Positions 14,649-33,261 of a DNA stretch of 64,000 bases are shown one piece after another. The notes under the pieces are model-generated. The model did not search any database. It worked only from the letters and a program-made list of their open reading frames with translations, and was not told where the DNA came from. Both the position numbers and the translations under genes were made by a program. Each line of letters starts with the position of its first letter. The first letter of the stretch is position 1. This DNA comes from an uncultured delta proteobacterium (lineage in GTDB: Bacteria; Myxococcota_A; Polyangia; Polyangiales; Houyiibacteriaceae). The DNA is taken from contig CAVOVB010000001.1 in the NCBI GenBank assembly GCA_963699755.1, positions 480,001 through 544,000 on the forward strand, written 5' to 3'.

Positions 14649-14695
14649 ACGCCGTCTGTTTGGCGTTCTGAACGCTCCCGCCTATCTTCGGCCCC

Positions 14696-16930: not shown

Positions 16931-16934
16931 AAAC

Positions 16935-17011
16935 TGGCGCGCCTGGAGGGACTCGAACCCCCGACCATCGGCTTAGAAGGCCACCGCTCTATCCAGCTGA
17001 GCTACAGGCGC
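16935..17011 (-). tRNA. tRNA-Arg, anticodon TCT
   Basis: Reverse complement GCGCCTGTAGCTCAGCTGGATAGAGCGGTGGCCTTCTAAGCCGATGGTCGGGGGTTCGAGTCCCTCCAGGCGCGCCA folds as a cloverleaf with encoded CCA. Confidence 0.97.
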
Positions 17012-17013
17012 GT
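16971..17013. repeat. Left att site (43-bp direct repeat, tRNA 5' half)
   Basis: gcttagaaggccaccgctctatccagctgagctacaggcgcgt is identical to 30751..30793. Confidence 0.95.
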
Positions 17014-17222
17014 AGGTTTTTCTGCGGTTTCATGGGCCCCCGTGGGACCCGTTTTCAGACTGTAACGTATTTGTCTCAGTCCCGAATTTTTCGCGGCGGT
17101 GCATCGGTGCGCCGCTTGCTCTGTTTAAACGTCGACGGCGGCCACCCTGCTACCGGTGTCCGCCGCCATTCATCGCCTGTTCCGGCCCCTTACCGTGACG
17201 GCGACCCCGAAAGGCCACCGAC

Positions 17223-18434
17223 ATGGTGCCTGCTTCATACATCGCGACACGATCGAGCGCAAGTCCTGAACCCGTAACGACCGAGTATGGTCAAGGCGTC
17301 CTCGACGGCATCGAGGAGGACATCCGCAACATCGACAAGAGCGAGGGAGACCACTACTCCCGACTCTTCGGCCGCATCGCGAAGCTTTGCAAGCACTGCA
17401 ACGGGGGCAGCATTGCGTGGCACGACGCGGAAGCGATGTTGTATGCGGTCGTCGAGGAGACTCGGCTCCGAACCCGGCACGAGCTCAAGAACGACATCCG
17501 AAGCGCCATGCGTCGCGTGGGTGACGAGGCGCTCCACCCGCCCGGAGAGAGCCGCGCCGCAGACAATGCCCCGCGCCTAGCACCGGAGCCTCCCGAGACG
17601 CCCTGGGCGGACCCGGTGGGCGTTCAGGCGCTTTGGGAAAGCACGGTCCCGATTGCGTTCGACGACGATGCTTATGCGTGGTCCACGCTGCGCGGGTTTG
17701 ACCATCGCGAAGCAGAGTTTCAGCGGCTGGCGCGGTTCATTCCTCGCCTCACTTCCGACGATCTGACGCCGGAGCAGGTCGAGGCCGTCAAGCGCGTGCT
17801 TCCCTCAGGGACCAAGCTCTGGGGCGAGTGGGGGCCGCCGCTTCGACTTGGTTATCGTGTCGCGCTCCCGACGTATGATGCCGACGGTGTCCTGCGGTCG
17901 CTTCGACTGCGGCTCGTCAACATCAAGCGCGGCACCGACGGCATTGCGAAGCTCCGCGAGCTCAAGTCGGGTGACAAGAAGTCGCTGAGCCTCCGTGGTC
18001 GCGCCAAGGGCGCCATCCTTGCCAACGCCGGAGCGCTCGAGCTCTTGCGGGGTAACCGACCTCGTGGGGAGTTCGTGGTCATCGTCGCCGAGGGCGAGAT
18101 GGATTTCCTGGTCCTCTCACTCGAGCCAGACGAGATCACGCGCTGCGTGTTCGGGCTTCCGGGCGAGGGCGCGTGGTCGTTCGACATTGCGAAAAAGATT
18201 CCGGGCGACGCCCGCGTTCTCATTGCGACCCATTCCGACAGCGCCGGCGAGGGATATGCGAAAGCGGTCCGAGCCACGCTCCCAGGACAAGGCCGGCTCG
18301 AACGCTGGCGACCGTGGTCGGTGGGCATGGAGGCGCTGAAGCAAGACCTCACGCCATACGCGGACGGTCGAAAACTCAAACATGACGTGGCGGACGTCCA
18401 CGGTCTTCGCGGGGGTGCGAGCAGTGGTTTCTGA
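17223..18434 (+). CDS. Toprim-domain primase-like protein
   Basis: IVAEGEMD and ATHSDSAG Toprim motifs; overlaps the helicase start. Confidence 0.7.
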   Translation: MVPASYIATRSSASPEPVTTEYGQGVLDGIEEDIRNIDKSEGDHYSRLFGRIAKLCKHCNGGSIAWHDAEAMLYAVVEETRLRTRHELKNDIRSAMRRVGDEALHPPGESRAADNAPRLAPEPPETPWADPVGVQALWESTVPIAFDDDAYAWSTLRGFDHREAEFQRLARFIPRLTSDDLTPEQVEAVKRVLPSGTKLWGEWGPPLRLGYRVALPTYDADGVLRSLRLRLVNIKRGTDGIAKLRELKSGDKKSLSLRGRAKGAILANAGALELLRGNRPRGEFVVIVAEGEMDFLVLSLEPDEITRCVFGLPGEGAWSFDIAKKIPGDARVLIATHSDSAGEGYAKAVRATLPGQGRLERWRPWSVGMEALKQDLTPYADGRKLKHDVADVHGLRGGASSGF

Positions 18435-20013
18435 AGAACAGACAAGGCGCGCCGCCGAAGCGCGCAAGCGATTTGAAGAGGACCGGACGCCTGAGAACGA
18501 GCAGGCGTTTCGGGAGGCGGTCGAGGAGCTTCAAGGCAAGGCGCCACGCGTAGTCGACAAGCCGCTCACCGACCTGACCGAGGAGGGCGTGGCCGACTAC
18601 TTCGTCACCATGTTCGAGAACGAGCTCCGGCACGTTCCGAAGTTCGGCTGGTTCCAATGGGCCGACTCGCACTGGAAGCAAGACGAGACCGGCGAGGTCT
18701 ACGGGCACTTTCGAGAGGCCACCGCTCGACTTCGAAGACAGTGGGAGGCGATGCCGAAGAAGACCGACGAGCAGAAGGCCATGGCTAGGTCATTCGGCCA
18801 GTTCGTCTCTCGAATGCGATCTGCTCGGTCACACGACGCAGTGCTCAAGATTGCGTCTCGCGACCCGAGGCTCGTGATTCGTCCCGGTGACCTCGACCAG
18901 CAACCGACGCTACTTCCGTGCCTCAATGGGACGGTCGACCTCACGACCGGCGAGTTCCGCGAAGCAAGGCGCGAGGACTTGCTCAGCCGCGTGGTTCCCG
19001 TCGACTACGACCCGATGGCATCGGCCCCGGTTTTCGAGAAGTTCCTGCGACGCATCCAGCCCGAGCGGGAAATGCGCGACTTTCTCCAGCGTCTTCTCGG
19101 CTATGGTCTCTTCGGCTTCGTCCGAGAGCACGTGTTCCCCATCTTCTACGGCGACGGCGCCAACGGGAAGAGCGTGCTCGCGCAGGTCGTCCAGCACGTC
19201 GTCGGAGAGTACGCGCAGACGGTGCCGCGAACCTTGGTCGTCGAGACCCGAAACGAGCAACACAAGACCCAGATTGCGCGGCTTCATCGCACTCGAATGG
19301 GATTCATCCACGAGACCGAGCGAGACGCGAGGCTCAACGTCGAGGCCGTCAAGATGCTGACCGGAGGCGACGTGCTGACCGGCCACTTCATGCGAAAGGA
19401 CTTCTTCGACTTTGTGCCGAGTCACGCGCTCTATCTGCTCAGCAACTGGAAGCCCCAGGTCGACGCGGCGATGCGAGCGGTATGGCGACGCCTGTTGCTC
19501 GTGCCGTTCGATGTCGAGATTCCCATCGAGGAGCAAGACCTCTCGCTCGCCGACAGGATTATCAAAGAGGAGTCGGCGGGCGTCCTGCGTTGGCTCGTGG
19601 AAGGCGCCGCGTGGTGGTGGGTTTTCTCGCAGGTGCGTGACGGGAGCTCAGGGCTGCTTCCGCCGAAGCGCGTGATCGACGAGACGAAGGATTACCAGCT
19701 CCAAGAGGACATCGTCGGCCGGTTCATCGACGAGTGTTGCGACTTAGGCAATGGCCGAAAGGTTCAGGCCGGGAAGCTCTACACCGCATACAAGAGCTAC
19801 TGCCAGCGCGAGGGCATCGAGAAGCCCGCGACGAGCAACAAGTTTGCCGACGCCGTCCAGCGAGTGAAGGGTGCAGACGGTCGCCGCATCGGCAAGAGCG
19901 AGAAGGACTCAGTCGACGGGCGAAAGTATTACGACGGGGTCGGCCTCCACGCCTCAGCCGAGCGAGACCCTCGAGAGGTGCCCGACGACGACCCGGAGAA
20001 CTGGTCCTTCTAG
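18424..20013 (+). CDS. P4/D5-family SF3 helicase (phage/plasmid primase C-terminal type)
   Basis: D5_N region (LPCLNGTVDLTTGEFR), Walker A GDGANGKS, KMLTGGD, AVWRRL, C-terminal winged helix; start may instead be 18382. Confidence 0.92.
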   Translation: MVSEEQTRRAAEARKRFEEDRTPENEQAFREAVEELQGKAPRVVDKPLTDLTEEGVADYFVTMFENELRHVPKFGWFQWADSHWKQDETGEVYGHFREATARLRRQWEAMPKKTDEQKAMARSFGQFVSRMRSARSHDAVLKIASRDPRLVIRPGDLDQQPTLLPCLNGTVDLTTGEFREARREDLLSRVVPVDYDPMASAPVFEKFLRRIQPEREMRDFLQRLLGYGLFGFVREHVFPIFYGDGANGKSVLAQVVQHVVGEYAQTVPRTLVVETRNEQHKTQIARLHRTRMGFIHETERDARLNVEAVKMLTGGDVLTGHFMRKDFFDFVPSHALYLLSNWKPQVDAAMRAVWRRLLLVPFDVEIPIEEQDLSLADRIIKEESAGVLRWLVEGAAWWWVFSQVRDGSSGLLPPKRVIDETKDYQLQEDIVGRFIDECCDLGNGRKVQAGKLYTAYKSYCQREGIEKPATSNKFADAVQRVKGADGRRIGKSEKDSVDGRKYYDGVGLHASAERDPREVPDDDPENWSF

Positions 20014-20129
20014 AGTTCCGCGCACCCGCCGCGCCCGCACGTCCCGAACCGTTTGTCACAAAACGGGGGTTGACAGAGTCCCTGTTTCAGGTGTGTCCTG
20101 GACATCCCCCGAGAGGAAGGAGTATCGCT

Positions 20130-21245
20130 ATGCGAGCTTTTGGCGCGGCGAGGACGGTCCCGTTGTTTCTTGCGGTTGTTGCTGCACTGACGATCGGTTG
20201 CAGCAGCGACGGCGGAGGCGGCAATGGTGACGGTGGCAGCGGTGGTACGGCTGGTTCTGGAGGTACGGCTGGCTCTGGTGGGAGTGCTGGAACCGGCGGA
20301 ACGGCGGGAACCGGCGGCACTGGAGGCACCGGTGCCACCGGAGGGACCGGTGGCACCGTATCCGGATGGATTTCACAAGATAGCGGCTTCGGGCACGATC
20401 TCCGGGCCGTGTCGTTCACCGATGCAAACACGGGGACGGCCGTGGGTGAATGGAATCTGATTTATCGGACGACCGATGGAGGCACGACGTGGACCACGCA
20501 GCCTAACCCAGCCCCCAATGTTGGCTTCCTCACTGGCGTGTCGTTTACCGATGCAAACACGGGGACGGCTGTGGGTTGGGATGGGCTCATTTTGCGGACG
20601 ACCGATGGGGGCACGACGTGGACCGAGCAAGATAGCGCCACCTTGGACTCGCTCTATGGTGTGTCGTTCACCGATGCGAACAACGGGACGGCCGTCGGTG
20701 CGAACGGGACCGTAGCATTGAGGACGACGGATGGGGGGGCCACGTGGACCATACAAAATCGCGGCGTGGGCGGGTGGGGCGTATCGTTCACTGATGCGAA
20801 CACAGGGACCGCCGTGGGCGTTGCCATTTGGCGGACGACCGACGGGGGGGCGACGTGGACCATGCAAGCCAGCCTCGCCCCCATGGTCGCCACCGGCGTC
20901 TTTCAAATCCCCGACATCCTCTATGGAGTGTCGTTCACCGATGCGAATAACGGAACGGCCGTCGGTGCGAGCGGGACCATAGTGCGGACGACCGATGGCG
21001 GGGCGACATGGACCGAGCAAGGTAGCGGGACCACGAACGACCTCAATGGCGTGTCGTTCACTGATCCGAACACAGGGACCGCCGTGGGCGACAGTGGGAC
21101 GATAGTGCGGACGACCGATGGCGGGGCGACGTGGACCGTGCAAAGCAGTGGCACCACCAACGACCTCTATGGCGTATCCTTCACTGATGCGACCACGGGG
21201 ACGGTAGTGGGCGACTTCGGGACCATCTTGCGGACGACTGACTGA
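20130..21245 (+). CDS. YCF48/BNR-repeat beta-propeller lipoprotein with Gly-rich linker (cargo)
   Basis: RBS ggaagga; lipobox LTIGC; GGTAGSGG linker; seven VSFTDxxxGTAVG...RTTDGG repeats. Confidence 0.85.
   Translation: MRAFGAARTVPLFLAVVAALTIGCSSDGGGGNGDGGSGGTAGSGGTAGSGGSAGTGGTAGTGGTGGTGATGGTGGTVSGWISQDSGFGHDLRAVSFTDANTGTAVGEWNLIYRTTDGGTTWTTQPNPAPNVGFLTGVSFTDANTGTAVGWDGLILRTTDGGTTWTEQDSATLDSLYGVSFTDANNGTAVGANGTVALRTTDGGATWTIQNRGVGGWGVSFTDANTGTAVGVAIWRTTDGGATWTMQASLAPMVATGVFQIPDILYGVSFTDANNGTAVGASGTIVRTTDGGATWTEQGSGTTNDLNGVSFTDPNTGTAVGDSGTIVRTTDGGATWTVQSSGTTNDLYGVSFTDATTGTVVGDFGTILRTTD
20409..21242 (+). repeat. Seven intragenic tandem repeats of about 120-147 bp
   Basis: Units begin at 20409, 20538, 20661, 20781, 20928, 21051 and 21174 (gtgtcgttcaccgatgc-like). 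Confidence 0.9.
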
Positions 21246-21307
21246 CTGCACCATGTGCGACGTCGGCGCGTTTGAGGCGCAGCCGTAGGAGACCAGGGCC
21301 TCCAAGG

Positions 21308-21550
21308 TGTCCGGAGGGTCTCCGGTGAGGTAACTTGCTGGAATAACTTGCTTTTGTACTTGCCACCCAAAGCGCCACCGGAGACTACGGAGACGTTGCG
21401 GGGTTGTAAACTCTACATGGTTTTCTCTCTCGTGCGTGAGTGCTAACTGAGCAAAGGTATCCGTAGTCTCCGGTCAGAACAGAAACTGCTGCGTTTTGCG
21501 CCCTAAAAGTACCGGATACCTTGCCTCCAGGGGTCTCCGTAGGTCTCCGG
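21308..21550. other. Candidate replication origin with direct and inverted iterons
   Basis: At least 8 copies of GT(C/A)TCCG(G/T) in both orientations; perfect 15-bp IR 21377-21391/21460-21474; (ta)acttgc x3; ORF-free and visibly more AT-rich. Confidence 0.7.
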
Positions 21551-22025
21551 GAATTGACCATACATATCCATTACCGCTGTAGAGGTCGCACTAGGAGTGC
21601 ACGGGTAGGTAACACCAACCGTTTTCCACGCCTGGCACCTCTCGCGCTTGGGTAAGGAGGGAGCGACAGTGACCGGCAAGTGGCTCTATAGGCCAACCGT
21701 CACCGTCTCGACGGCGCTGTGATTGCGGATACTTAGCGCTCAGCTTCCGGCATCTTCCCGCCGACTGTCACGCCAGTGTCCCCTCGAGAGCAAAAGTGGC
21801 CATACACGACCCCCACGGTGCCATAGGTAACCCCTGCTCGGAGCGGCCGGCCGAGCCCTCTGCGGTCCGCAAAATTCTCAGTCCTAGATTTCGACTTGGA
21901 ACAATTGCACAGAATTTTGCAGCGCGTAGGCCCAAAGTAAGCTGCATATTCCCAGGGAGTGCTATACTCGAGCCATCGGTGTGGTGGTCACCTCCCCACG
22001 CCCGGGCCCTGGGTCGGTCCGTCAT

Positions 22026-22346
22026 TCAGCCGACCTGGGGCGCCTTTCTATTCGCGCAGTAGCAACTCCGGCAGCGCTGAGACCGGCCCTGGACGATGTC
22101 GTTCAAGTAGCGGGCGTAGACGTTGCCGCAGCTGACGCAGAAGACCTCGATGGTGGTCAGCTTGTCCCAGGCGTTCTTGCGGTAGGGCTCGGAGACGACC
22201 TCCCAGCCCGTGACCCGGCCGTACTTGTCGACGATGCGTTCACCGAAGCGGATGGTTCGCCAGTTGCGAGCTCGGCGCTGATGCTTGCTCGGTGTGCGCT
22301 CTACGCCCTTCCAGAGCCACCGTACGGCCATGCTCGAGCCTACCAT
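22026..22346 (-). CDS. Small zinc-ribbon protein resembling the N-terminal module of phage HNH/AP2 proteins
   Basis: KYGRVTGWEVV...CVSCGN...IVQGRSQRCRSC pattern. Confidence 0.5.
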   Translation of the reverse strand: MVGSSMAVRWLWKGVERTPSKHQRRARNWRTIRFGERIVDKYGRVTGWEVVSEPYRKNAWDKLTTIEVFCVSCGNVYARYLNDIVQGRSQRCRSCYCANRKAPQVG

Positions 22347-22935
22347 GGCTCCGGCATCATCTCAGCCTTGAAATAGCCTCAAATGGCGCTGTACGGGCTT
22401 GCAGTCCCTGTTATAGTAGCGGCAGGCTGGTTTTGATATCCCTGGCCGAGCTCGAGCCGCTTTGGTTTCATGGGGCGGCTCGAGCGACTGATGACCCCGA
22501 GCAGTGCTTCTCGCTTGTCGCTGCTCGTGGGCCATCGCTAACCCCGACCGATGTGCAGTCACTTCTCGGCTTTCTGGCATCAGACTGAGCTCACGCGGAA
22601 AGAGCAGGAGAACAACCACGGCTCGATTAGCGGGCACTCCAAGGGGCTGAGTGTCATCGGTTCGCCGGGTCCAAAGTTCGTGCGGCTCGAGCGCTATTGG
22701 AAACGCGAACCGAAGGACGCAGGGCCGTGTCCGCATTGCGGCGAACCCGATCGGTGGAAGTGCTGGTCCAAGACGAGGAGACTCGAGCTCTTCGGAATGG
22801 GTCGTCGATGAACGACGGGGACGAGGCAGGTGACGCGCTCCGACTGCTGGCGGTCCTGTTGTGGTGGGCGGCTGCGATTGCGGCAGCGTTCGCGACTGCT
22901 CTGCTCTGGTGAGCTCGAGCGCTGAGCATAAAAAT

Positions 22936-22973
22936 GCCCTCGACGGCTCCCAGGAGAAGCAACCGTCGAGGGC
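22936..22973. terminator. Candidate bidirectional intrinsic terminator
   Basis: 11-bp stem gccctcgacgg/ccgtcgagggc flanked by aaaaa and ttt; lies downstream of the leftward operon. Confidence 0.55.
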
Positions 22974-23182
22974 TTTGCGTTTCGACGCCGTTAGGATCGC
23001 ACAGCGGCGTGCTCAGTCAACCGTCGCGAATGGGGAGCGATGCGCCTACCCGGGGAAAGGAGGCTAACCCTGGCAGGCGGTCGCTCGTAACTGCTGAACG
23101 GAAAAGCGACAACGTGAGCGCACTTCCGGAAAAATTCGTCGCTCGAGGATGCGCTGTAAGGCCCGCAAATGTTTTCCAGGTC

Positions 23183-23413
23183 CTAGGCATCGTCCGAATT
23201 CCGAGGCGCTGAGAACTCGTCGGCCAAACCAATCGCAATCACCGAACCGACGACTTTCCAGCACACGCGACGGTCGCCGACCTCGAGCTCGCAGAGACGC
23301 TTGTCCCCGGACTCGAAGTCGGCGCGCTCCACCACGAGGCGAAACACATCCATCCGGTCGAGTGCGTCGAGCGCCTTGATACCGGGGGAGAGCCGCGCCT
23401 TGATGTCACTCAT
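23183..23413 (-). CDS. Hypothetical protein
   Basis: ATGA overlap with the upstream gene. Confidence 0.55.
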   Translation of the reverse strand: MSDIKARLSPGIKALDALDRMDVFRLVVERADFESGDKRLCELEVGDRRVCWKVVGSVIAIGLADEFSAPRNSDDA

Positions 23414-24453
23414 GGCTGCGCTCGCTGACGCTTCCACTCAAGGAACTCGGCCTGCTCGCGTTGCCATTCGCGGTAGAGGTCCCATCCGACGCGGTTTTCG
23501 TGCATGGACTGAAGCGCGGCGGTGCCGCTCTCGGCCGTGGCGCAGGAATAAAGGTGGTACGGGCCATCCGTTTCGAGTCGGGGGTCATCGAGCCAAACCA
23601 AGACGAGCGGCTCGTCTCGCCCGTATGCGTCCCTGTTGCGCACCTCGATCTGTTTCAGCGTGGCGACCCTGCCGTTGGCGTAAGAGCGTCCGTAGTCCGG
23701 CACAACGGCGCCGACGCGAAGTTCCGCAGCGCTGAACCTGTAGCTGATGTCGTTCGGCAGCCCGTGGACCAGTAACCCTTCCGCGATGACACTGTGTCCA
23801 CGCCAGTTGCCGAGCGGCATAGAGGCGATGCGGCGCTCCATGTCTGGGTCCATCGACGGCGGGTCGTTGAGACCCGTGCCCCACTGGGTGTAGACCGCAT
23901 CGAGGTTCGCTCGGCGGTATTGGTGGCAATCCTTCCTGCGCGGGTTCGGGTAGTGCTCGACTCTCGTCTGGTTCCAGTGGGCAATCGTGACCTCGATAGG
24001 CGGCTCGTCCTCGTACTGCCCCGGGAGCGGTCGCCAGTAGGCATAGAACCCGCCACACGGCTTTCTCGTTCCGAGCAACTCGGACTTGACCGCGTGTGCT
24101 TCGTAGACCGGGCTGTGCCGGATCTTGCGCCCCTTCACACGTTCGCCAATCTCGAGGAAGTGCGGGTGCTTCTGCGTGCCACCCGAGTCGATGTGGACAC
24201 CGCCCGTCTGCGTGCGCGGCTTCGCTCTTGGGTAGAAGCTGCTCGCCGCGACCACGTCACCCGGCTTGATTGGATCTTCATCCTCGGCAAGCCAGCCAAG
24301 CTCGCGACAGGCGCTCTCCCAGTTCCCGAACTCATCTCGGCCGACCTTGCCGAGAACCCGAGTTTCCCACTCGTCATCCGCATCGTGCTGTATCTTTTGA
24401 ACCACCTGCCCGGTCGGGTTCAGCACGCAGACGTAATGTCGTTGCATTACCAT
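23410..24453 (-). CDS. Hypothetical protein
   Basis: Long ORF in a tightly coupled operon; no recognised domain. Confidence 0.65.
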   Translation of the reverse strand: MVMQRHYVCVLNPTGQVVQKIQHDADDEWETRVLGKVGRDEFGNWESACRELGWLAEDEDPIKPGDVVAASSFYPRAKPRTQTGGVHIDSGGTQKHPHFLEIGERVKGRKIRHSPVYEAHAVKSELLGTRKPCGGFYAYWRPLPGQYEDEPPIEVTIAHWNQTRVEHYPNPRRKDCHQYRRANLDAVYTQWGTGLNDPPSMDPDMERRIASMPLGNWRGHSVIAEGLLVHGLPNDISYRFSAAELRVGAVVPDYGRSYANGRVATLKQIEVRNRDAYGRDEPLVLVWLDDPRLETDGPYHLYSCATAESGTAALQSMHENRVGWDLYREWQREQAEFLEWKRQRAQP

Positions 24454-24455
24454 CT

Positions 24456-24665
24456 TCAAATACCTTTCCGGGCCGCCGGCGTGCGCACGTAGGTGGGGTC
24501 CCACTTGCCTACCACCAACGAACCTTCGTAGTCGCCGTCCTCGGTGCCAAACCAGACTTCATGCACGCCGTCTTGAATTGGGTCTATGTGGGTGACGACC
24601 ACTAGGCCGCCCTGTTCATGGAAGAAAACATCGTCTTCCTTCAACTCGTACAGCTTCTTTTCCAT
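24456..24665 (-). CDS. Small acidic hypothetical protein
   Basis: Strong RBS AAAGGAG; 2 bp from the next gene. Confidence 0.7.
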   Translation of the reverse strand: MEKKLYELKEDDVFFHEQGGLVVVTHIDPIQDGVHEVWFGTEDGDYEGSLVVGKWDPTYVRTPAARKGI

Positions 24666-24733
24666 TTTCACTCCTTTCCGAACCCGGCCGCCGCAGAGGC
24701 ACCATTGCCTCCACGACGGCGAGCTCTGTTACA

Positions 24734-25129
24734 TCAAAACGGAATGCTGTCCTCGTCGGCGAGAACGTGCGCTCCGGCCGGTGCCGGCTTCGGCGCCCGG
24801 CTCCGCACCCTAATGGCGCTCTTGAGCTCACTGCCCACTGCCACCTCGGCCTTGAAGAGCGCGACGCTTTGGCCCTTCCACGCCTCCGGCTCACCTGAGC
24901 CGATGAGCGCCTTGATGGTCCTCACGTTGGTCTTATTCAGAACCCAGCGGGTCGGGCCGCCCGGCACCAACGGCGCCGCCAACTTCACGACCGGCTTCTT
25001 CTGAGAAGTCCCGTCCCGTTGGTCGAGCATCTCGACGCCGACCGACTCGATGACTGCGACGACGTCGCCGGAGTCCGGCAAGTCGACCGAGCTGATGAAT
25101 TTTCGTTCGAATGTGCTTTCAATGTCCAT
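24734..25129 (-). CDS. Phage-type SSB-like protein
   Basis: Beta-rich core with LNKTN motif and acidic C-terminal DEDSIPF tail. Confidence 0.65.
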   Translation of the reverse strand: MDIESTFERKFISSVDLPDSGDVVAVIESVGVEMLDQRDGTSQKKPVVKLAAPLVPGGPTRWVLNKTNVRTIKALIGSGEPEAWKGQSVALFKAEVAVGSELKSAIRVRSRAPKPAPAGAHVLADEDSIPF

Positions 25130-25160
25130 TTTCAGTTTCCCTGTCAGTTGAGTTTCAATT

Positions 25161-25376
25161 TCAGCCGGATGATTCCGGCAGAGTCTTGACGCGGCTCACG
25201 AGGTCGACCTCGACGCTCGAATCGAACGTGCGAGACCGGACCTCGCGGCCGTCTTCGTAAATGACCTCGACGTCTCCCGCGTCGGTGACGACGGCGTCCA
25301 TCGCCGCGCAGCACTCGACGAGCTCGTAATCGAAGACGAACCGGTCGCCGGTGCGGAGCCGGGCAATCATCATCAC
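25161..25376 (-). CDS. Small hypothetical protein
   Basis: 4-bp overlap with the upstream Toprim gene. Confidence 0.6.
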   Translation of the reverse strand: MMMIARLRTGDRFVFDYELVECCAAMDAVVTDAGDVEVIYEDGREVRSRTFDSSVEVDLVSRVKTLPESSG

Positions 25377-26404
25377 TCGATCTCCTCTTGAAGCTGGTCG
25401 ATGAGTTCGCTCACGCGCTGCATCGGCTCTTCGATGTCGTCCTGGCGCTCTGCCCAGATGTCAGCGTCGATGTGCTCTGCGATGGCAGCTCGGATGATGT
25501 CGCGCAGAGCAATCTCATTGGTGGCAGTGAGCGCATTCAACTCCACCATGTCTGGTCCGTACCGGTCGATGTACTCTTGAATTTTGCTGTTCTGCCCCTT
25601 CTGCTGCGCGCTGAGGCTGCGTCCGGTGTGCATCTTGTCGTAAGCGCTTTCCATCGGGAGGTTGCGCTCCCTGGCTTGCTCCAGCGTGATGGCGACTCTG
25701 GTCACCGAGTCGACCTCGGCAACGTCGCGCACCCACCGGGCATCCATCCCAACGCCCTGCATGTCGTGGTCGCCCGCATAGAGGACGACGGGCTCCTGAC
25801 CCCCGTCACGCACCCGACGACACCAGTGCCCCACGTTCAGCTTCTGCCGGATGGACGCGTCACCCCCGGTGCAGAGAAAGTCGGTGCGCGTGCGGCCGCA
25901 GGCGTTTTCAACGATGCTGCGCAAGCCCAGCTTCTCGCAAAGGACGAGGGCTCGCACGGCCTGCCCTTCCCAGGGGTCCAGTCTCAGTTGCGGGATGCTG
26001 TGCGCCCAGTCGTCCACATCGTCGTGGAAGCTCCACCCCCGGATATCGTGGTCGCCGTCATCGTCGAGCAGGTCTGGGTCGAAGGCGTCGGGTCCACGGT
26101 CTCCAGCAAGCCACTTTTTCCGAGCTGTGATGAGAGTGTTTACAACCCATGTGCCCCAGAGCACCTGTTTCTTCGTGCCGTCCGGGTTCTCGGTTTTGTA
26201 GTCCGGCTCGATGAAGCTCCAGGGTTTGTCGCGGAGGTAGTAGTAGCAGTCGCGCACGCCGGGCGGCCCCAGAACGCGAGCTTCGCTGTAGTCTCTCACC
26301 CACTGGAGAAACTGCCGCCGCTCCTCGTCGGTGACTTGGATGACGAGTTTGCCTTTCTGGATAACCAGAATTTCGTCCTGCGGACGTGGCGTGACGGGGG
26401 TCAT
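25373..26404 (-). CDS. TopoVI-A/Spo11/JetD-like Toprim protein
   Basis: VRDCYYY near the N-terminus, VLCEK, GGDAS, LYAGDHDMQG, RVAITLEQ and VELNAL motifs. Confidence 0.7.
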   Translation of the reverse strand: MTPVTPRPQDEILVIQKGKLVIQVTDEERRQFLQWVRDYSEARVLGPPGVRDCYYYLRDKPWSFIEPDYKTENPDGTKKQVLWGTWVVNTLITARKKWLAGDRGPDAFDPDLLDDDGDHDIRGWSFHDDVDDWAHSIPQLRLDPWEGQAVRALVLCEKLGLRSIVENACGRTRTDFLCTGGDASIRQKLNVGHWCRRVRDGGQEPVVLYAGDHDMQGVGMDARWVRDVAEVDSVTRVAITLEQARERNLPMESAYDKMHTGRSLSAQQKGQNSKIQEYIDRYGPDMVELNALTATNEIALRDIIRAAIAEHIDADIWAERQDDIEEPMQRVSELIDQLQEEIE

Positions 26405-26925
26405 GACAGCACCTCGCCTCGAATTCGTTCCCGGACTCGCGCCGTTGCGCCGGGGGCGAGTTTCCACATGGGCGGCACTGCGACCGGGCTCGGGTCGTAG
26501 AAAATGGCCGTGTCGCCCTCGGCCCACGAGAGCCCTCGGCACATCAGTCCCGGCGGCACAACGATGCCGCGCTGCGGTCGACTCATCTGTCCCGAGGAGC
26601 AGTCAATCGTCCAGCCCTTGCTGCGAACCACAAGATGACCGTGGAGCCCCGGCGACTGGTCCGGCATGTCGTGGCGAACAGCAACGGTCCACGCATCGTC
26701 CGGCATCGGGTCGACGGGCTCGGGGGACGTCTGCACCCACTCGCACCACGCACGATTCGCGGCGGTGCAATCCATGACCGCGAGCGAGGCTGGGATTCCG
26801 TGTTCGCGCAGCACCTCGAAGGCGTGGTAGCTGGCCGGAATGCAAACATCCTGTTGTGCGTATTCCTCGACCACGATTCCGGGAAGCCGCTCAACGATTC
26901 GGCTGTACAGCTCGCTGCGCCTCAT
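26401..26925 (-). CDS. Putative papain/transglutaminase-like Cys-His-Asp protein
   Basis: DVCIPAS...GHLVV...TIDCSSGQ triad pattern; ATGA overlaps on both sides. Confidence 0.55.
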   Translation of the reverse strand: MRRSELYSRIVERLPGIVVEEYAQQDVCIPASYHAFEVLREHGIPASLAVMDCTAANRAWCEWVQTSPEPVDPMPDDAWTVAVRHDMPDQSPGLHGHLVVRSKGWTIDCSSGQMSRPQRGIVVPPGLMCRGLSWAEGDTAIFYDPSPVAVPPMWKLAPGATARVRERIRGEVLS

Positions 26926-27272
26926 GACAGCCGCCCCATCCACTCCGCCCATTCGGACATCCGGCTCGCGAGTATCTCCAGATGCAAGGCCATGAGTCCT
27001 CGCATCGAGCCCGGTCGCTGACCTTCTTCGTCCCACGGCAGAATCCGCTCGAAGAAATCCGCGAGCTGTCGTTCGTTCTCTTCCGTCTGATCGCGAACCA
27101 GCGTGCTCCACTTGTCGCAGAACTGTTCAATGCGCTCTGGCCGTGAGAGCCACGCCAAGCGAGCGGCGCACCGCGGGCAGTGTTCGTTGAACGGCATCTC
27201 CCATGCCCGGCGACGGCCCTCGACAGAGCAGCGCTCGCAGCCAGGCAGCTCCCTCGGATACCGGCGACTCAT
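26922..27272 (-). CDS. Hypothetical zinc-binding protein
   Basis: CERC...CPRC motifs; ATGA coupling. Confidence 0.6.
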   Translation of the reverse strand: MSRRYPRELPGCERCSVEGRRRAWEMPFNEHCPRCAARLAWLSRPERIEQFCDKWSTLVRDQTEENERQLADFFERILPWDEEGQRPGSMRGLMALHLEILASRMSEWAEWMGRLS

Positions 27273-27484
27273 GACGCCCGCCTCAGCTGAGCGCGGACCC
27301 ATCGGCCAGCGAACCGGAGCTCGAACTCGACCCATTCGCCGAGACCAGCGACCCGCCTGCGGGCCTCGAAGAACCTCTCGGCGTCCTCGCGATACCGGAA
27401 CGGCCGGACCGCCATCGTGCCGTGAATCGGATTGTGGACGACCACTCGCCACGGCGCCTCGCTCGCAACCCCTTGCTTTCTCAT
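27269..27484 (-). CDS. Small hypothetical protein, first gene of leftward operon
   Basis: RBS AAGGAGG directly upstream. Confidence 0.7.
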   Translation of the reverse strand: MRKQGVASEAPWRVVVHNPIHGTMAVRPFRYREDAERFFEARRRVAGLGEWVEFELRFAGRWVRAQLRRAS

Positions 27485-27531
27485 GCCTCCTTGCCTTTCT
27501 GCGCCCTGGCCCGGGGCCTCAGCGCAATCCC

Positions 27532-27559
27532 AGAATAGACCCATGTCCTCCTTTGTCAA
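27532..27559 (-). promoter_or_regulatory. Sigma70-type promoter for the leftward operon
   Basis: TTGACA (27559-27554), 16-nt spacer, TATTCT (27537-27532) on the minus strand. Confidence 0.7.
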
Positions 27560-27635
27560 CCTAACGGGTGGACAAGTACGGCGGTGCGCGCTACGGTGTT
27601 GGCTATGGACGGCGAATTGCGCGACACTGGGGCCC

Positions 27636-28052
27636 ATGGCGGGGAAGAAGACCTCCATCTATCTGACCGACGAGGACTCGGCGCGGCTGGATGCGGTGCA
27701 CGAGGCGATGCGGACGGCTCCGAACCTCCGGCAGTTCGATCTGAAGTGGAGCGACACGCTTCGACTTCTCTTGCGCCAAGCGCTCCAAGTGGCCGAGCTC
27801 GAGTACCTGCACAAAATTCCCGAGGACGCCGACGCAGAGGAGTGGCTCGATGCGCTCAAGGAAGAGCATCGGAAGCAGTCCGCGATTTTGCGAGCCCTTG
27901 TCGACGAGGGCTGGGCGGAATCGAAGCTGACGACGGGTGGACGGCGCTGGCTTTCGAAGGACGGCCGGGTCTCATTGGAGCCGCAGCCGGAGGCGCTCCC
28001 AAAGAAGCGCCGCTCAACAAAGAAGGATCCGAAGAAGAACGACCGGGAGTGA
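27636..28052 (+). CDS. Ribbon-helix-helix regulator
   Basis: KKTSIYLTDEDSARLD...WSDTLRLLLRQAL: strand followed by two helices. Confidence 0.65.
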   Translation: MAGKKTSIYLTDEDSARLDAVHEAMRTAPNLRQFDLKWSDTLRLLLRQALQVAELEYLHKIPEDADAEEWLDALKEEHRKQSAILRALVDEGWAESKLTTGGRRWLSKDGRVSLEPQPEALPKKRRSTKKDPKKNDRE

Positions 28053-28080
28053 CGGCGTCGCTCCTTGATAGGAGCAACGT

Positions 28081-28314
28081 ATGAACGGACACGAAACGAA
28101 CCCCCAGGTCGCCTTCCGGGCACCGCGCACGCTGATCAGGCGGCTCGACCGTCTCAGCAAGGCGCTTCAGAAGAGCGAGGGAATTCCCGCAAGGCGAAGC
28201 GTCGTCATTCGACGTGCCGTGCTGGCAGGTCTGCCGCACCTCGAGGACGAAGCGCTCAGTCTGCTCACCGACGAGCTCGGCCGTCACCCCGACGTTGACG
28301 AGGTGTCGCCGTGA
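28081..28314 (+). CDS. Ribbon-helix-helix (CopG-like) regulator
   Basis: QVAFRAPRTLIRRLD...RSVVIRRAVLAGL; RBS aggag. Confidence 0.7.
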   Translation: MNGHETNPQVAFRAPRTLIRRLDRLSKALQKSEGIPARRSVVIRRAVLAGLPHLEDEALSLLTDELGRHPDVDEVSP

Positions 28315-28715
28315 TCAAGCTAACCAAGTGCGAGCCACGCACCACCCGAGACGGATTCGCGCCCACCAACCGCGAGGCGCCCAGCAACAAAACTTACGAA
28401 AGAAAAAGTATGACCATCGAACAACGGCGAGACGCCGACATCGTGCGCCAATGCGGGGAAACCACCGCCATCAAGAAACAGTACATGGACGCGCAAGAGC
28501 AACGCACGATCGACGCAGCAGTAGGAAAAGTCCGGGCTGCTATCAAGAGCCTGGAGGCGAGGATCGACGCCCTCGAAGCACGGCAGGCGAAAGCACGGCA
28601 GGACGCACGCCTCGGACCACTCAGGGCTTACTTCAGCCGACCCGTGAAAGCCTACGAGCTCGACGAAACAGCGAGCCTACTCCGCCGTTACCCCATTTTT
28701 GGAGATCGACCATGA
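28311..28715 (+). CDS. Hypothetical coiled-coil protein
   Basis: GTGA/ATGA coupling; alternative start at 28410. Confidence 0.55.
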   Translation: MIKLTKCEPRTTRDGFAPTNREAPSNKTYERKSMTIEQRRDADIVRQCGETTAIKKQYMDAQEQRTIDAAVGKVRAAIKSLEARIDALEARQAKARQDARLGPLRAYFSRPVKAYELDETASLLRRYPIFGDRP

Positions 28716-29410
28716 GCCATTTGTATACACAGCCGCGAACGCCCGAAGAGGACATGGAGCTCCGGCTCCGTGATCTCGAGGAACACGACTACGCACTGCT
28801 TCGAGCGGCCAAAGCGGCGGGTGCCCGCGTCGTGACCCGGGCTGGCATGTACGTGATTCTCAACCCCGAGGTGATGGGTCTCGAAGCTCCCGCCCCGGAC
28901 GACGAGCAACCCACGTTCCGGCTGCCCCAGATCCATAGGCGCGACGTGTACCTTCCCCTGGAAGACCGAACGCTGACCGCGAGGGCCTTCACCGATCCAT
29001 GCCGCAAGACGCCGAAGAAAGCGATCGAGTTCATGGCCAAGTGCACGCGGACTCCGGTCCTGCCGAGATTCACCGCGGTGCGGACGAACGATCATCTCGC
29101 CGTTGGCGCGACCGAGCCCCTGGCACTCGACGCGCTGGGTGCAACTCCAGGCGACACGGTTCAAGCGCTGCTCATCGACTGCGACAGCGAGCGGCTCGCG
29201 ATGCAGATCGCCGAAGAGCAACGCGACGGCCTCCCGTGGTCAGGGGACCTCGAGATCGGTTCGACGGGCCGCTTGCCGTTCGGATGGCACGGACAGCGAT
29301 TGACCCCCGAAGAGATGAGCGCACGCGACCATCAGGTCCGGGTGGACCGCGCTGCCAAGCGGGCACGACGCGACAAAGTCATCCGTCAAATGCAGAGGGA
29401 GCCGCTGTGA
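28712..29410 (+). CDS. Hypothetical protein
   Basis: RBS ggag; coupled to both neighbours. Confidence 0.65.
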   Translation: MSHLYTQPRTPEEDMELRLRDLEEHDYALLRAAKAAGARVVTRAGMYVILNPEVMGLEAPAPDDEQPTFRLPQIHRRDVYLPLEDRTLTARAFTDPCRKTPKKAIEFMAKCTRTPVLPRFTAVRTNDHLAVGATEPLALDALGATPGDTVQALLIDCDSERLAMQIAEEQRDGLPWSGDLEIGSTGRLPFGWHGQRLTPEEMSARDHQVRVDRAAKRARRDKVIRQMQREPL

Positions 29411-29733
29411 CTGACGAGCGGCGATACGGAGGATGGAAGGACGTGGCCAACTACTTCGGCATCGGCCGAGAGTCCGCCTACGACCTGTGCAGGGCCCATT
29501 CCTGGGCGGAGAAGCACGCCGGTAAGTGGCTGGTGAATCTCGCTCGGATGCGCGAGTGGGGCGATTTTGGAAGGCATGGAGTGTGGCAAAACGAGTCTAC
29601 AAGCGGGGAAGTGTCTGGTGGGGCGACTTCCGTGCTCTCGGCGGGAAGCAAGAGTCGCTTGGCGTCACGAGCAAGGCGTCGGCCCTCGTCAGATACAATG
29701 AGCGCGAGCTGGCGCTCAGTGAACGCCGACTAG
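29407..29733 (+). CDS. Excisionase-like HTH protein
   Basis: WKDVANYFGIGRESAYDLC HTH plus wing (GKWLV); overlaps the integrase start. Confidence 0.7.
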   Translation: MTDERRYGGWKDVANYFGIGRESAYDLCRAHSWAEKHAGKWLVNLARMREWGDFGRHGVWQNESTSGEVSGGATSVLSAGSKSRLASRARRRPSSDTMSASWRSVNAD

Positions 29734-30701
29734 GACCGCTTCCCCTCGGGATGGTGCTGACGTTTGCGCTCGAGGCGAAGAAGCGTCGGGCCAAGGCCCA
29801 CGGTCGCGATGTCGAGAAGACACTCAGGACCGGCCGCCAGCATTGCGAAGTGCTCGAGCGTCACCTCGGAGACCTCGGTCTCGACTTCAACGACCCGCAC
29901 CTTTCGCTCGAGGGCGTGGGCGAGGACTTCCTCGACAAGCGCACCGCCGACGAGACCAACAAGGGAACGACGGTGACGCCGCACACGGCGCTCAAGAACC
30001 TCAAGACGCTGTCCCAGGGACTTCGTGAGGCGCGCAAGCGCAAGTGCTTCGAGGGCGAACCGAGCGAGGTCATCCCGGAGTTCCTGACCGATGGTGCCGT
30101 CTACACTCCATCGGACCGCTGGCTCACGGCGGACGAGTTCGACGCGATGTTCAGCAAAGCGCCCGAGCAGCGCCGCAAAGACTTCGTGTTGGGCGTCGAG
30201 ACGGGCGCAGACCACGGCGAGCTCGAGAAGGTGGACAAGGCTCTCCATGTCGACCTCTCGACCGTGCGAGGCCCCCAAGGTGCCATACGACTGCCGGCGA
30301 CCAAGACCGAAGAGCGCGACCGCTGGATTCCGTTGAGCGTCGCAGCGCGCAAGGCCGTCGACGAGTGTCTCGCCGAAGAGGGCGATTACCTCGTGACGCC
30401 GTGGGCCAACTTCAAGCGCGACATGGCGAACCCATGCAAGCGCGCCGGCGTCGTGCCCTTCATCTGGAAAGACATTCGCCGCACGTTCGCGAGCCGTTGC
30501 GCGCAAGCGGGCGTGCCCGAGTTCTGGACGGTGAAGCTCATGGGCCACCGCGACAGCAAGATGATTCGTCGCGTCTATGCGCGTCTTTCGCCGGGAACCT
30601 ACACCGAGGCCATCAAGCGACTCGAGACGATTCCGTATGTCACGCCAGTGTCTCGTGGCGACATCGTCGAGCTCAGCAACTACAGGGAAAACCCTGCATG
30701 A
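29583..30701 (+). CDS. int: Tyrosine recombinase/integrase
   Basis: N-terminal VYKRGSVWW arm-binding-like segment; TKT, DIRRTFAS, LMGH and VYARL motifs; ends about 50 bp from the att repeat. Confidence 0.9.
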   Translation: MAKRVYKRGSVWWGDFRALGGKQESLGVTSKASALVRYNERELALSERRLGPLPLGMVLTFALEAKKRRAKAHGRDVEKTLRTGRQHCEVLERHLGDLGLDFNDPHLSLEGVGEDFLDKRTADETNKGTTVTPHTALKNLKTLSQGLREARKRKCFEGEPSEVIPEFLTDGAVYTPSDRWLTADEFDAMFSKAPEQRRKDFVLGVETGADHGELEKVDKALHVDLSTVRGPQGAIRLPATKTEERDRWIPLSVAARKAVDECLAEEGDYLVTPWANFKRDMANPCKRAGVVPFIWKDIRRTFASRCAQAGVPEFWTVKLMGHRDSKMIRRVYARLSPGTYTEAIKRLETIPYVTPVSRGDIVELSNYRENPA

Positions 30702-30750
30702 CTCAGGAAGCCATGGTGCAGAAACCCCTTATTCAAAACGACGCTGTATT

Positions 30751-30793
30751 GCTTAGAAGGCCACCGCTCTATCCAGCTGAGCTACAGGCGCGT
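30751..30793. repeat. Right att site, orphan 5' half of tRNA-Arg
   Basis: Exact copy of 16971..17013; lacks the T-arm and 3' acceptor strand. Confidence 0.95.
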
Positions 30794-30898
30794 CTCGGCG
30801 CTGTTTAGCACGATAAGCATTGAGGTGTACGTCGACGGCCATCGGACAGCGGCATTCCCCCCAAACCGCGCCACACAAACCCTCGCGGTCGCAGGCCG

Positions 30899-31336
30899 CT
30901 AGGCGGCCGACCCAGCAAGTCCGAGCGCGACCCGTATATCTCGCAACACGCTCTTCTCGACTGACTTGATGCGTCCGTCCGCAGAGGCTGCGATCTCGGC
31001 GGCACCCATGACGAGCTCCGCGTGTTTCGCAACGCCCTTGGCGCGGGCCACACAGCTCAGCGCAAGGCGCGTTCCGTCTTCGGGATCGGAGAGCATGACT
31101 TCAGACAAGTCACCGAAGGCTTGGGAGAGCTCGTCGAAATCGATTCTGGGGAAGACATCGGCCTTGGAAGCCAAGGTCTCGAGAAAACGATCTGCCTCTG
31201 CTTTGGTGAGCTCGCCGTCCGAGGCGGCCACCAACACAAACGCACCGGCCACCGCTCGCAGCAGGCCCGGCGGAACATGATCGTCAAAACGCTGCCATGC
31301 TGCGAGCGCGTAGGCGACTGACTCTTCTGGGATCAT
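30899..31336 (-). CDS. TerB-family protein
   Basis: LVAASDGELTKAE and IASADGRIKSVEK motifs. Confidence 0.8.
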   Translation of the reverse strand: MIPEESVAYALAAWQRFDDHVPPGLLRAVAGAFVLVAASDGELTKAEADRFLETLASKADVFPRIDFDELSQAFGDLSEVMLSDPEDGTRLALSCVARAKGVAKHAELVMGAAEIAASADGRIKSVEKSVLRDIRVALGLAGSAA

Positions 31337-31489
31337 CAATGGCTCTCCAATGAAATCAAGCGTAGCCCGATGTCCGGCCTCGGCCAGCGCGGATTCGTCC
31401 CGTGAAGCCAATCTAGTGAAATCAAGGCGCTTCTTTGGCACAGCGAGCACCCAGCCACGGAACGCGCCTGGGGGTCGAGTCCTACCAGT

Positions 31490-33115
31490 TCACGCCATCA
31501 GGTTTCCAAGAATCAGATCCGCAGCCCGCTCCGCCACCGCAACCGTGGGGGCGTGCGTATTGCCTGAGGGCAGCAAGGGGAAAATCGACGCGTCCGCGAT
31601 CCGCAACCCCTCGATCCCGTGCACCCTGAGCTCGTTGTCGACCACGGCCGTCGGATCCTCTACCGAGCCCATCTTCGAGGAGCCAACCGGATGATAGACG
31701 CTCATCCCCTCGGTCCTCCAGAACTCCAAAATCTCTTCGTCGCTCTGCACCGAGTCGCCGGGCAATATTTCGTAAGTGGCGTGCGGCTTGAACGCCTCTG
31801 ACTGGTAGATCTTTCGCTGCAGCTTGAATCCCTCGATGGCTAGCTCACGGTCGTGATCGGTCGACAAGTAGTTGTGGATGATCTTCGGGAAGGCGGTTGG
31901 ATCGGTGCTGCGCGCATGCACGCTCCCACGTGAAGTCGGTCGAATGATGCAGACCGTCGAGTTCACCCCGGGATCGGGCGTCGCCACCATCTTGCCGTCG
32001 GCATCCATCCCGCCCGCGCCAGGTGTGAAGTGGATCTGAAAAATCGGACGTTCCGCGCCCTCGTTCGGCACGAAGCCACCCACGTTGCAAGCCGGCATCG
32101 TGAGCGGTCCCTTCTTCATGAACATGTACTTCAGCACGGCGAGGACGACTCGGGGGAATTTCCCGTCCTCCGAAAGGCAGTGCTTGGTCTTCACTCCTTG
32201 CTGAACCCAGATCTGAAAATGATCTTGAAGGTTCTCGCCAACGCCGCGAAGCTCATGCTTCAGCTCGATGCCGAGCTTGGAAAGCACTTCCGGGTTGCCA
32301 ATCCCGGACTGCTCGAGCAGCGGCGGCGAGTTGTAGGTGCCAGCAGAGAGCACGACTTCGCGATGGGCGTTAACCCGGTGCACCTTGCCCTTCGCGTCCT
32401 TGTACTCGATGCCAATGGCCTTCTTCCCTTCGAGCAAAATGCGCTGTGCGACGGCCTTGATCACAATAGTGAGGTTCGGTCGCTTCTTGACGTCCGCGCT
32501 TAGAAACGCGTCGGCCGAGCTCCAGCGTTGACCGCCTTTCATATTCACCTGGACGTAGCCGATGCCCTCTTGCTTCTCGCCGTTGATGTCGTCGTTGCGG
32601 GGAATGCCAACGCTTACGGCCGCCTCGATGTACGCGTCGCTGATGTCGTATTTCATCTGGACGTGCGTGACGTTCAGCTCCCCACCCTTGGCGTGATACT
32701 CGTTGGCCGGGCCGGGCTCGAAGTTCTCCGAGCGCTTGAAGTAGGGAAGCATGTTCTTGTACGACCAGCCCTGGCATCCTGGGAGCGCGCCCCAGTCGTC
32801 ATAGTCCTGTCGCTGACCGCGCATGTAGACCATTCCGTTGATCGAGCTGCAGCCACCAAGAACCCGGCCGCGCACCACGCTCATTTCGCGGTTGTTGAGG
32901 TGCGGCTCGGGCTCGGTCTTGTAGAGGTTCGTCGTCTTCGCGTCGTACATCAGCTGGGTGAAGCCGATGGGCATCTTGATCAGTGGGCTACTGTCCTTGC
33001 CGCCAGCCTCCAACAACAAAACCCGGTTCCCCGGATCTGCAGATAGGCGATTGGCAAGACAGCAGCCTGCTGACCCTGCCCCGACCACGATGAAATCAAA
33101 AGCGTCTTCAGGCAT
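31490..33115 (-). CDS. GMC oxidoreductase (choline dehydrogenase-like)
   Basis: VGAGSAG, GGCSSINGMVYMRG, YHPVG and GNTHAP motifs. Confidence 0.9.
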   Translation of the reverse strand: MPEDAFDFIVVGAGSAGCCLANRLSADPGNRVLLLEAGGKDSSPLIKMPIGFTQLMYDAKTTNLYKTEPEPHLNNREMSVVRGRVLGGCSSINGMVYMRGQRQDYDDWGALPGCQGWSYKNMLPYFKRSENFEPGPANEYHAKGGELNVTHVQMKYDISDAYIEAAVSVGIPRNDDINGEKQEGIGYVQVNMKGGQRWSSADAFLSADVKKRPNLTIVIKAVAQRILLEGKKAIGIEYKDAKGKVHRVNAHREVVLSAGTYNSPPLLEQSGIGNPEVLSKLGIELKHELRGVGENLQDHFQIWVQQGVKTKHCLSEDGKFPRVVLAVLKYMFMKKGPLTMPACNVGGFVPNEGAERPIFQIHFTPGAGGMDADGKMVATPDPGVNSTVCIIRPTSRGSVHARSTDPTAFPKIIHNYLSTDHDRELAIEGFKLQRKIYQSEAFKPHATYEILPGDSVQSDEEILEFWRTEGMSVYHPVGSSKMGSVEDPTAVVDNELRVHGIEGLRIADASIFPLLPSGNTHAPTVAVAERAADLILGNLMA

Positions 33116-33261
33116 TTCGTCTCACAGCCTTCGAGTCGCAAACCACCGTGGTTTTCTATCACAGGACGAGGCGGGGACAACCTCGAGGGTTTTTTGGCGC
33201 GACGCGCGCGCTCAACTATGATTCGCCGAATTCAGCAGATTGCCCGCATTGGGAGGTTGGG

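Follow-up and report, generated by a model that had tools for sequence, protein, structure and literature searches.

How can a mobile element occupy the only tRNA gene that reads a codon in general use, and how does its integrase work with an aspartate where a catalytic arginine is expected? Both questions are raised by a 64,000-nucleotide stretch of DNA from an uncultured delta proteobacterium (assembly GCA_963699755.1, contig CAVOVB010000001.1, positions 480,001 to 544,000), referred to below as the window, in which a 13.8-kb element sits in a tRNA-Arg(TCT) gene. The best explanation, in which we have good confidence, is a satellite-like element in the sole tRNA-Arg(TCT) gene, with the 5' half of the gene on its far arm, a palindromic core and catalysis that uses Arg245 of the integrase. 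The tRNA layout itself is a known, catalogued minority case (~4% of tRNA islands). The useful part of the finding is the integrase, with a likely relocated catalytic arginine and repeated switching between two positions.

Integration at tRNA-Arg(TCT)

The intact tRNA-Arg(TCT) gene lies at 16935..17011 on the minus strand (ARAGORN; Rfam tRNA, 64.1 bits) and matches its counterpart in a relative (G015) over 78 nt with 100% identity. Repeat and genome searches returned two direct copies of a 43-bp attachment repeat, at 16971..17013 and 30751..30793, identical at 43 of 43 positions and 13,780 bp apart; the exact 43-mer occurs at these two places only in the 5.35-Mb genome. As the original prediction had described, the repeat consists of tRNA positions 1-41 plus 2 upstream bases. 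It ends 2 nt beyond the 7-nt anticodon loop. The second copy is an orphan 5' half of the tRNA (30791-30751, minus strand), which lies 50 bp behind the integrase stop at 30701 and is antisense to int. The intact gene would be a hybrid of an element-derived 5' part and a host-derived 3' part.

This arrangement has the features of a 5'-fragment tDNA island as defined in Islander: an intact tRNA gene with a 5' fragment in the same orientation upstream, a tyrosine integrase within an interval of 13.8 kb (2-200 kb allowed), an empty site in relatives and a host upstream region that stays beside the fragment. In a comparison with the empty locus in relatives, the region upstream of the orphan resembles empty sites; a permease gene directly adjoins the tRNA in three relatives (G020, G022 and G023), and a GMC oxidoreductase lies upstream of it in many. 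Islander lists a 5' fragment in 159 of 3919 islands (PMC4383910; the papers cited here and below are represented by excerpts). The rarity implied for the layout had been overstated.

A single Arg(TCT) gene was called among 55 tRNA genes in the 11 contigs (ARAGORN) of an assembly rated 100% complete and 9% contaminated, so the check for a second copy came out as the original prediction required. By standard wobble rules AGA is read only by the Arg(TCT) tRNA, and AGA is present in 1226 of 1959 long open reading frames (ORFs). The ORFs of the element contain 13 AGA per 3492 codons versus 2.3 per 1000, with no clear enrichment.

A misassembly or a strain chimera at the 43-bp repeat would also produce two junctions of this kind, and the contamination of the bin speaks for it. 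The locus, however, lies inside a 1.95-Mb contig with flanks that match the gene order of relatives, the junction carries the core and arm motif of the integrase clade at the same place as in other records, and the same layout recurs in another genome (G167), where a canonical related integrase belongs to a 20-kb reversed element at tRNA-Lys. We consider an artefact extremely improbable. Contigs of four sequencing runs, compared with positions 14500-33500, included among the matches listed no junction-bridging piece, empty site or circle joint, and provide no evidence either way.

Active site of the integrase

The integrase (372 amino acids, start inferred; 29583..30701, plus strand) was identified by profile matches (phrog_1, E 2.6e-24; PF00589) and by fold, its structure model (predicted local distance difference test 82) matching the Tn1549 and lambda integrases. 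The catalytic lysine K241, the second arginine R299 (Arg-II), H322 (His-III) and the tyrosine Y332 are kept, and the His-II position is held by Lys296. Box I lacks the canonical first arginine (Arg-I). Asp210 (30210-30212) stands at this position, opposite Arg-I of archaeal XerA in the alignment, and 17 of 17 close homologues have the same residue. A different arginine, Arg245 (30315-30317), is found four residues after the catalytic lysine and 35 residues after Asp210, just before the following strand.

The two arginines follow a nearly strict either-or pattern. In an alignment of 176 sequences, composed of the best 150 library hits, the top 18 of 28 further hits and 12 loci, with one dropped for a gap, all 68 sequences without Arg-I have an arginine at column 245, and 105 of the 108 with Arg-I do not. 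Taking the 149 cluster representatives alone, 46 have Arg245 only, 100 have Arg-I only and 3 have both. A further 27 genome copies all fit the pattern (16 Arg-I only, 11 Arg245 only), and no sequence among the 176 + 27 is missing both arginines. Lys, Arg-II, His-III and Tyr are kept in nearly all homologues aligned, and an aspartate at 210 is paired with a lysine at the His-II position in 36 of 37 cases. These sequences are kin and not independent, and no p-value is attached to the arginine counts.

The pattern was also placed on a tree. On a FastTree phylogeny of 203 sequences, built with both columns masked, the arginine state changes 20 times, compared with a mean of 63 and a minimum of 53 in shuffles; after weak branches were collapsed, the rough bound is 15 changes. 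In a subset of 28 sequences, hand-picked so that mixed pairs were represented, 6 changes are required by well-supported branches, and the approximately unbiased test rejects a single origin (p 5e-71). Judged from this residue pattern, Arg245 likely replaces Arg-I in phosphate stabilisation. The integrase is likely active despite the aspartate at Arg-I, because Arg245 likely takes over that role. Arg229 was also considered as a replacement and rejected, since 12 of 37 Asp-type sequences lack it, as do most of the other sequences without Arg-I.

The contrary reading is that the integrase is catalytically dead, that the element is frozen or moved by another recombinase, and that Arg245 only binds DNA. 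Arg173 of Cre tolerates only Lys and His as substitutions, and Gibb et al. (2010), who give Arg-I as present in only 91% of tyrosine recombinases, left it open whether the other 9% are inactive or rely on a different geometry (PMC2943603). For this strain, neither an excised nor an empty junction was seen. Against a dead enzyme stand the presence of at least one of the two arginines in every sequence of the 176 + 27, the retention of Lys, Arg-II, His-III and Tyr in nearly all homologues, the perfect identity of the two repeats and the presence of Asp-type integrases at three different targets with the same core. We regard inactivity as unlikely and proceed with Arg245 as the probable substitute. 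The strict exclusion of the two arginines, together with many independent switches, makes the question of Gibb et al. directly testable with one mutant pair.

A palindromic core and its targets

Inspection of the sequence around the anticodon loop revealed a palindromic core, GGC-N7-GCC (16970..16982). Its 7-nt loop (16973-16979) is the predicted crossover, as suggested by the end of repeat identity and by the cores of relatives. All 5 of the 5 close-clade loci in which a junction could be recognised have GC-N7-GCC downstream of the int stop, at a distance of 19-52 bp, against a background of 0.003 per position. At the host sites the sequence is a GGC-N7-GCC palindrome, and the same is true of 21 of 30 parE-like gene starts of the genus. 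An arm motif at 30729..30740 (plus strand) resembles TAAGT(C/A)AAAGCG, a string that four relatives carry 11 nt ahead of the core.

The targets of these close relatives differ in direction. In the window the target is tRNA-Arg(TCT), antisense to int, with a 5' orphan; in genome G043 it is tRNA-Glu(CTC), in the sense direction, with a 3' orphan of positions 31-75. Three metagenome records (L034, L036 and L039), with integrases 46-53% identical to the one described here, have as target the first five codons of a parE/gyrB-like gene, antisense to int, and the orphan start is still joined to the upstream parC/gyrA-like gene. All 30 parE-like starts of the genus that were examined are empty. No Asp-clade locus with a known target has a gene piece between int and the core.

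These observations suggest a mechanism. The integrase would bind the GGC-N7-GCC core, which the anticodon arm offers both ways, and strand exchange would likely take place across the 7-nt loop, with the 7-nt overlap setting the orientation. With no more than 19-52 bp between the int stop and the core, a copy of the target gene does not fit beside int and would have to lie on the far arm. A target running with int, such as tRNA-Glu, would place the 3' half there, which is the usual case. A target running against int, such as tRNA-Arg or the parE/gyrB-like gene, would require the far arm to hold the 5' end and a promoter. The palindromic core thus likely lets the clade take targets either way round.

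Joining both parts, we give somewhat better than even credence to the view that the arginine moved repeatedly between box I and the post-lysine site, as a second working geometry in a family common in this bacterial order, and that the Asp clade reads a 13-bp core both ways and takes over the promoter and 5' end of essential genes. If true, the sole AGA-reading tRNA and a topoisomerase B subunit have both been taken over by one clade. The shared core would be a simple account of how reversed islands arise, and it leads one to expect elements with control over the expression of an essential topoisomerase subunit.

Several points weigh against this account. Two close-clade loci (L033 and L035) end before the core, and a more distant Asp-type locus (L037) has no recognisable junction. 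The core was recognised after the junctions had been viewed and not predicted beforehand. The parE-type elements are known from the int side only, their far-arm 5' end being predicted, and the targets behind the clade pattern are those of the loci given above, P0002-P0017 not being part of it. Two distant loci with a canonical Arg-I (L038 and L045; 27-29% identical) face tRNA-Arg in the same way but hold its 3' half beside int, which means that routes other than a flip can lead to a reversed layout.

The last point bears on a different origin, in which an ancestor facing tRNA-Arg this way would have lost a 3' half that lay between int and core and, through imprecise excision, picked up the 5' half together with upstream DNA. 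L038/L044 and L045 carry 3' halves of tRNA-Arg(TCT/CCT) in just this int-side position, with the same or a similar loop and in the same direction. Their integrases, however, fall outside the well-supported Asp clade. Within that clade the known targets of the sister elements run reversed (parE-like) and that of the next branch runs forward (tRNA-Glu), and in none of them does a gene piece lie between int and core. Such a half-swap is possible but doubtful, and two-way use of the shared core is preferred.

A search of viral contigs for the arm-plus-core pattern gave 10 matches, none with an integrase or tRNA. In L107 / L131:3476-3550 (G117) and L040:1555-1627, an intact tRNA-Val(TAC) stands directly behind the integrase stop on the same strand; for the Asp-type integrase and tRNA-Val of G117, no orphan half was found in 55 kb.

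Transcription of the intact tRNA

Of 37 full Arg(TCT) copies in 35 genus relatives, 31 are preceded by TG(C/T)TA at a distance of 17-20 nt; position and conservation mark this sequence as likely the host promoter (an extended -10). In the window, the orphan half has TGCTA at -19 (30810-30806), within a genus-conserved host upstream region (30794..30835, minus strand), and the intact tRNA lacks the motif. The 70 nt upstream of the orphan resemble the empty sites of relatives (z up to 9.7). Motif and likeness together bear out the claim that the orphan half keeps the host upstream region. Because the host motif is beside the orphan and not the intact tRNA, the host promoter likely stayed with the orphan, and the intact gene would depend on element DNA. 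The DNA now upstream of it is the distal element arm (17014..17222, minus strand; z 5.0 to the relative G013), which would hold a substitute promoter from which the tRNA is likely transcribed.

The inference that the element must supply a promoter follows from the single gene copy and the use of AGA, if the assembly is right, and on this basis the element side probably drives the tRNA; that half of the claim stands, and the promoter itself was not located. Some results count against it. A sigma-70 scan found no promoter on either side (element arm or host side), and the TGCTA motif is absent from the element arm. The best score of the arm in a host-trained model, built from 16 host tRNA promoters, is equalled by 65% of random windows; this model also misses the host promoter of the same tRNA, where 76% of windows score as high, and it was set aside as uninformative, neither side rising above random. 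The hexamer TACAGT, put forward as a candidate -10, is present at 17064-17059. It falls outside the five best sites of the host-trained model, a weak test as the model misses the host promoter, and is not conserved in the G013 end, so that it was not retained as a promoter.

A single relative provides a case for such an arm serving the tRNA. The region upstream of the tRNA in G013 resembles the element arm (z 5.0, 0 of 300 shuffles, the best of 38 comparisons); the likeness of G063 is lower (z 2.6, 3 of 300 shuffles). Common to the element arm and G013 are a 9-nt motif (17066-17074) and the A-rich last 12 nt. G013 has a single Arg(TCT) copy and no close integrase, which suggests, from this one case, that an arm of this kind can serve the tRNA alone.

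It could instead be that the intact tRNA is silent or barely expressed and that a second gene, absent from the assembly, supplies the reader of AGA. No promoter was found in the element arm, the assembly consists of 11 contigs, and this tRNA has no match in 19 of 55 genus assemblies. Yet the completeness rating and the 55 tRNAs speak against a missing gene, 34 of 35 relatives with a match have one full Arg(TCT) copy, and G013 has a homologous arm before its only copy. We judge this alternative very unlikely, compared with transcription from the element arm.

The G013 locus (L078:8482-10896, G013:C77) has its tRNA-Arg(TCT) inverted relative to the usual neighbours, without the host motif and with upstream sequence like the far arm of the element; it is possibly a domesticated element end. 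A search of 55 genus genomes with the distal arm gave 5 short matches outside the genome itself (E 0.001-0.01). A hairpin common to the distal arm and G002 was not used, since it is present elsewhere too. Folding was not significant for the leader (z -1.6) or the orphan transcript (z -0.4), and the tRNA was the sole match in an Rfam scan. On the host side, the likely tRNA promoter and the GMC oxidoreductase are separated by a TerB-like gene (30899-31450), with no homologue in the loci fetched from relatives.

Orientation of the likely host promoter toward int

The original prediction proposed that the host promoter left at the orphan makes antisense RNA that dampens int. The likely host promoter is intact and aimed at the 3' end of int, ~110 bp away. 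A weak terminator-like site at the int stop (30692..30708, minus strand; 1 found versus a shuffle mean of 0.2, sd 0.4) faces it, and the antisense overlap would be at the int 3' end, ~1.1 kb from the int start.

A layout census covered 27 loci of the wider integrase family in a draw of 401 genomes of the order (from 30 of 53 listed matches, 3 already known). The commonest layout is an intact tRNA facing the int end (12 loci, with 1 more cut by a contig end). The others have a sense 3' orphan (4), an antisense 3' piece (3), a 3' piece upstream of int (1), an antisense 5' orphan (1), an intact sense tRNA (1) or nothing found (4). A host tRNA promoter aimed at int is thus ordinary in this family, and the reversed layout adds nothing special. 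Antisense regulation of int is not favoured by these results, and we rate it as quite unlikely.

Comparison with known systems

The element is the same as known reversed (5'-fragment) islands in having a tyrosine integrase, a displaced 5' fragment, an anticodon-centred crossover and a rebuilt gene with element DNA upstream (Islander, PMC4383910). It differs from them in that the integrase lacks Arg-I and that close relatives use the same core forward on tRNA-Glu and reversed on a protein gene. The 5'-half situation is described as seldom in bacteria, and archaeal pTN3-like cases are known (PMC8371274). As here, the attachment site of pTN3-like integrases is a tRNA 5' half; their rebuilt tRNA is expressed from an element promoter, which is likely for the present element too. 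In those elements, however, the site splits the int gene, whose promoter drives the tRNA. The int gene described here is unbroken, stops 50 bp short of the repeat and lies at the other end facing the orphan, unlike that of pTN3/SSV-type suicidal integrases.

The CTnDOT-type integrases and IntDes are similar in that Arg-I is absent, another conserved arginine is thought to replace it, and both states occur in one subgroup (PMC8138268, 10.1101/542381). The alternative arginine of CTnDOT was taken as a precedent in favour of the Arg245 reading. It is at the end of the first beta-strand, according to the cited paper, whereas Arg245 is four residues after the catalytic lysine, and the exclusion described here is strict and has switched many times. 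The Arm-DNA-bind_5/SAM5 N-terminus of IntCTnDOT is also lacking, with only PF00589 matched at E<=0.01.

Elements that enter the 5' end of protein genes include SXT in prfC and the dusA-associated islands (PMC4482086), and SpyCI in mutL (PMC3430984). The elements in L034, L036 and L039 are like these in leaving the gene start with the upstream gene, and are distinct in having a type II topoisomerase B subunit as target; their rebuilt 5' end is predicted. In tRNA-dependent lysogeny (PMC10865867), as in the present case, the host comes to depend on an element for an essential tRNA, but there the phage brings a whole copy and the tRNA is not rebuilt at a junction.

The arginine swap four residues after the lysine, the two-way use of a core and a type II topoisomerase B subunit as integration target were not found in the literature searched, which included few subscription journals and no supplements; for the swap, the nearest descriptions were those of CTnDOT, IntDes and Cre. 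The datasets of PMC8138268 may include members of this integrase family.

Gene content of the element

The element looks like a satellite-type island of 13.8 kb, judging by its genes. Like P4-like satellites and islands resembling phage-inducible chromosomal islands (PICIs), it combines a size of ~14 kb with an integrase, an HTH_17 protein and a P4-family primase-helicase, and no capsid, terminase or other virion family and no conjugation family was matched among the 21 ORFs scanned (PHROGs). The P4/D5-type primase-helicase C-terminal protein is encoded at 18382..20013 (plus strand; PF08706, E 3.6e-30; TIGR01613 over cut-off; phrog_2478). It is preceded by a 403-amino-acid ORF (17223..18434, plus strand) for which a Toprim/primase-like role is a lead only: its Atlas match (0.94) is to a cluster with Toprim_2 in 18% of members, and no Pfam, PHROG or NCBIfam match was obtained. 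The HTH_17 protein (29407..29628, plus strand; PF12728, E 3e-4, below cut-off) overlaps the int start, has a homologue ahead of int in L035, and is likely excisionase-like.

The other annotated genes are a cargo gene for a YCF48/BNR-repeat protein (20130..21245, plus strand; PF14870, E 2.8e-27; repeats D1-D6) and a 389-amino-acid ORF with a topoisomerase-like domain (25373..26542, minus strand; phrog_6247, E 9.7e-24). The element also contains many orphan ORFs, and most of its ORFs are without a family. Searches for homologues of the primase-helicase in viral contigs and for homologues in genome contigs found none. The source record of an integrase 83% identical to this one is labelled Deltaproteobacteria bacterium.

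The repeat at 21248-21289 was rejected as a cassette site, as it reads as a protein-coding motif and is present at 9 other places in the genome. Behind the cargo gene, the non-coding positions 21283-21560 hold several short inverted repeats of the GGAGAC/GTCTCC type (one pair listed, I17) and could be a replication origin for the primase-helicase. A 15-nt identical core is shared by 21761-21789 in the middle of the element and 30633-30661 in the int tail (D20), and may mark a binding site of the arm type or a former element end.

Other islands and tRNA loci

Among relatives, L079:1640-1940 (G003:C28) may preserve a 188-bp scar left by a 5'-type insertion. Behind the host motif come positions 1-55 of tRNA-Arg(TCT), followed by 133 bp whose end holds another TGCTA motif, different from the first, and after this the tRNA in full. 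An ordinary 14-kb 3'-type island with a canonical integrase is also present at this tRNA.

In the genome studied here, a Thr-Tyr-Gly-Thr-Trp tRNA cluster and a Lys-Glu pair are each found twice (G000:C1:1660610-1662514 and C7:339345-341392; C8 and C10 ends). Their upstream sequences are partly different, in line with the level of contamination or with contig overlap. Among 11 rows of tRNA fragments in this genome, a second 5' fragment occurs at tRNA-Leu(TAG), versus seven 3' fragments. This second 5'-fragment island, outside the window (G000:C1:1567453-1588836), is 21 kb long. Its integrase ORF runs into the intact tRNA and has a TGCTA motif in its tail; ahead of the orphan lies sequence similar to the tail of another such integrase.

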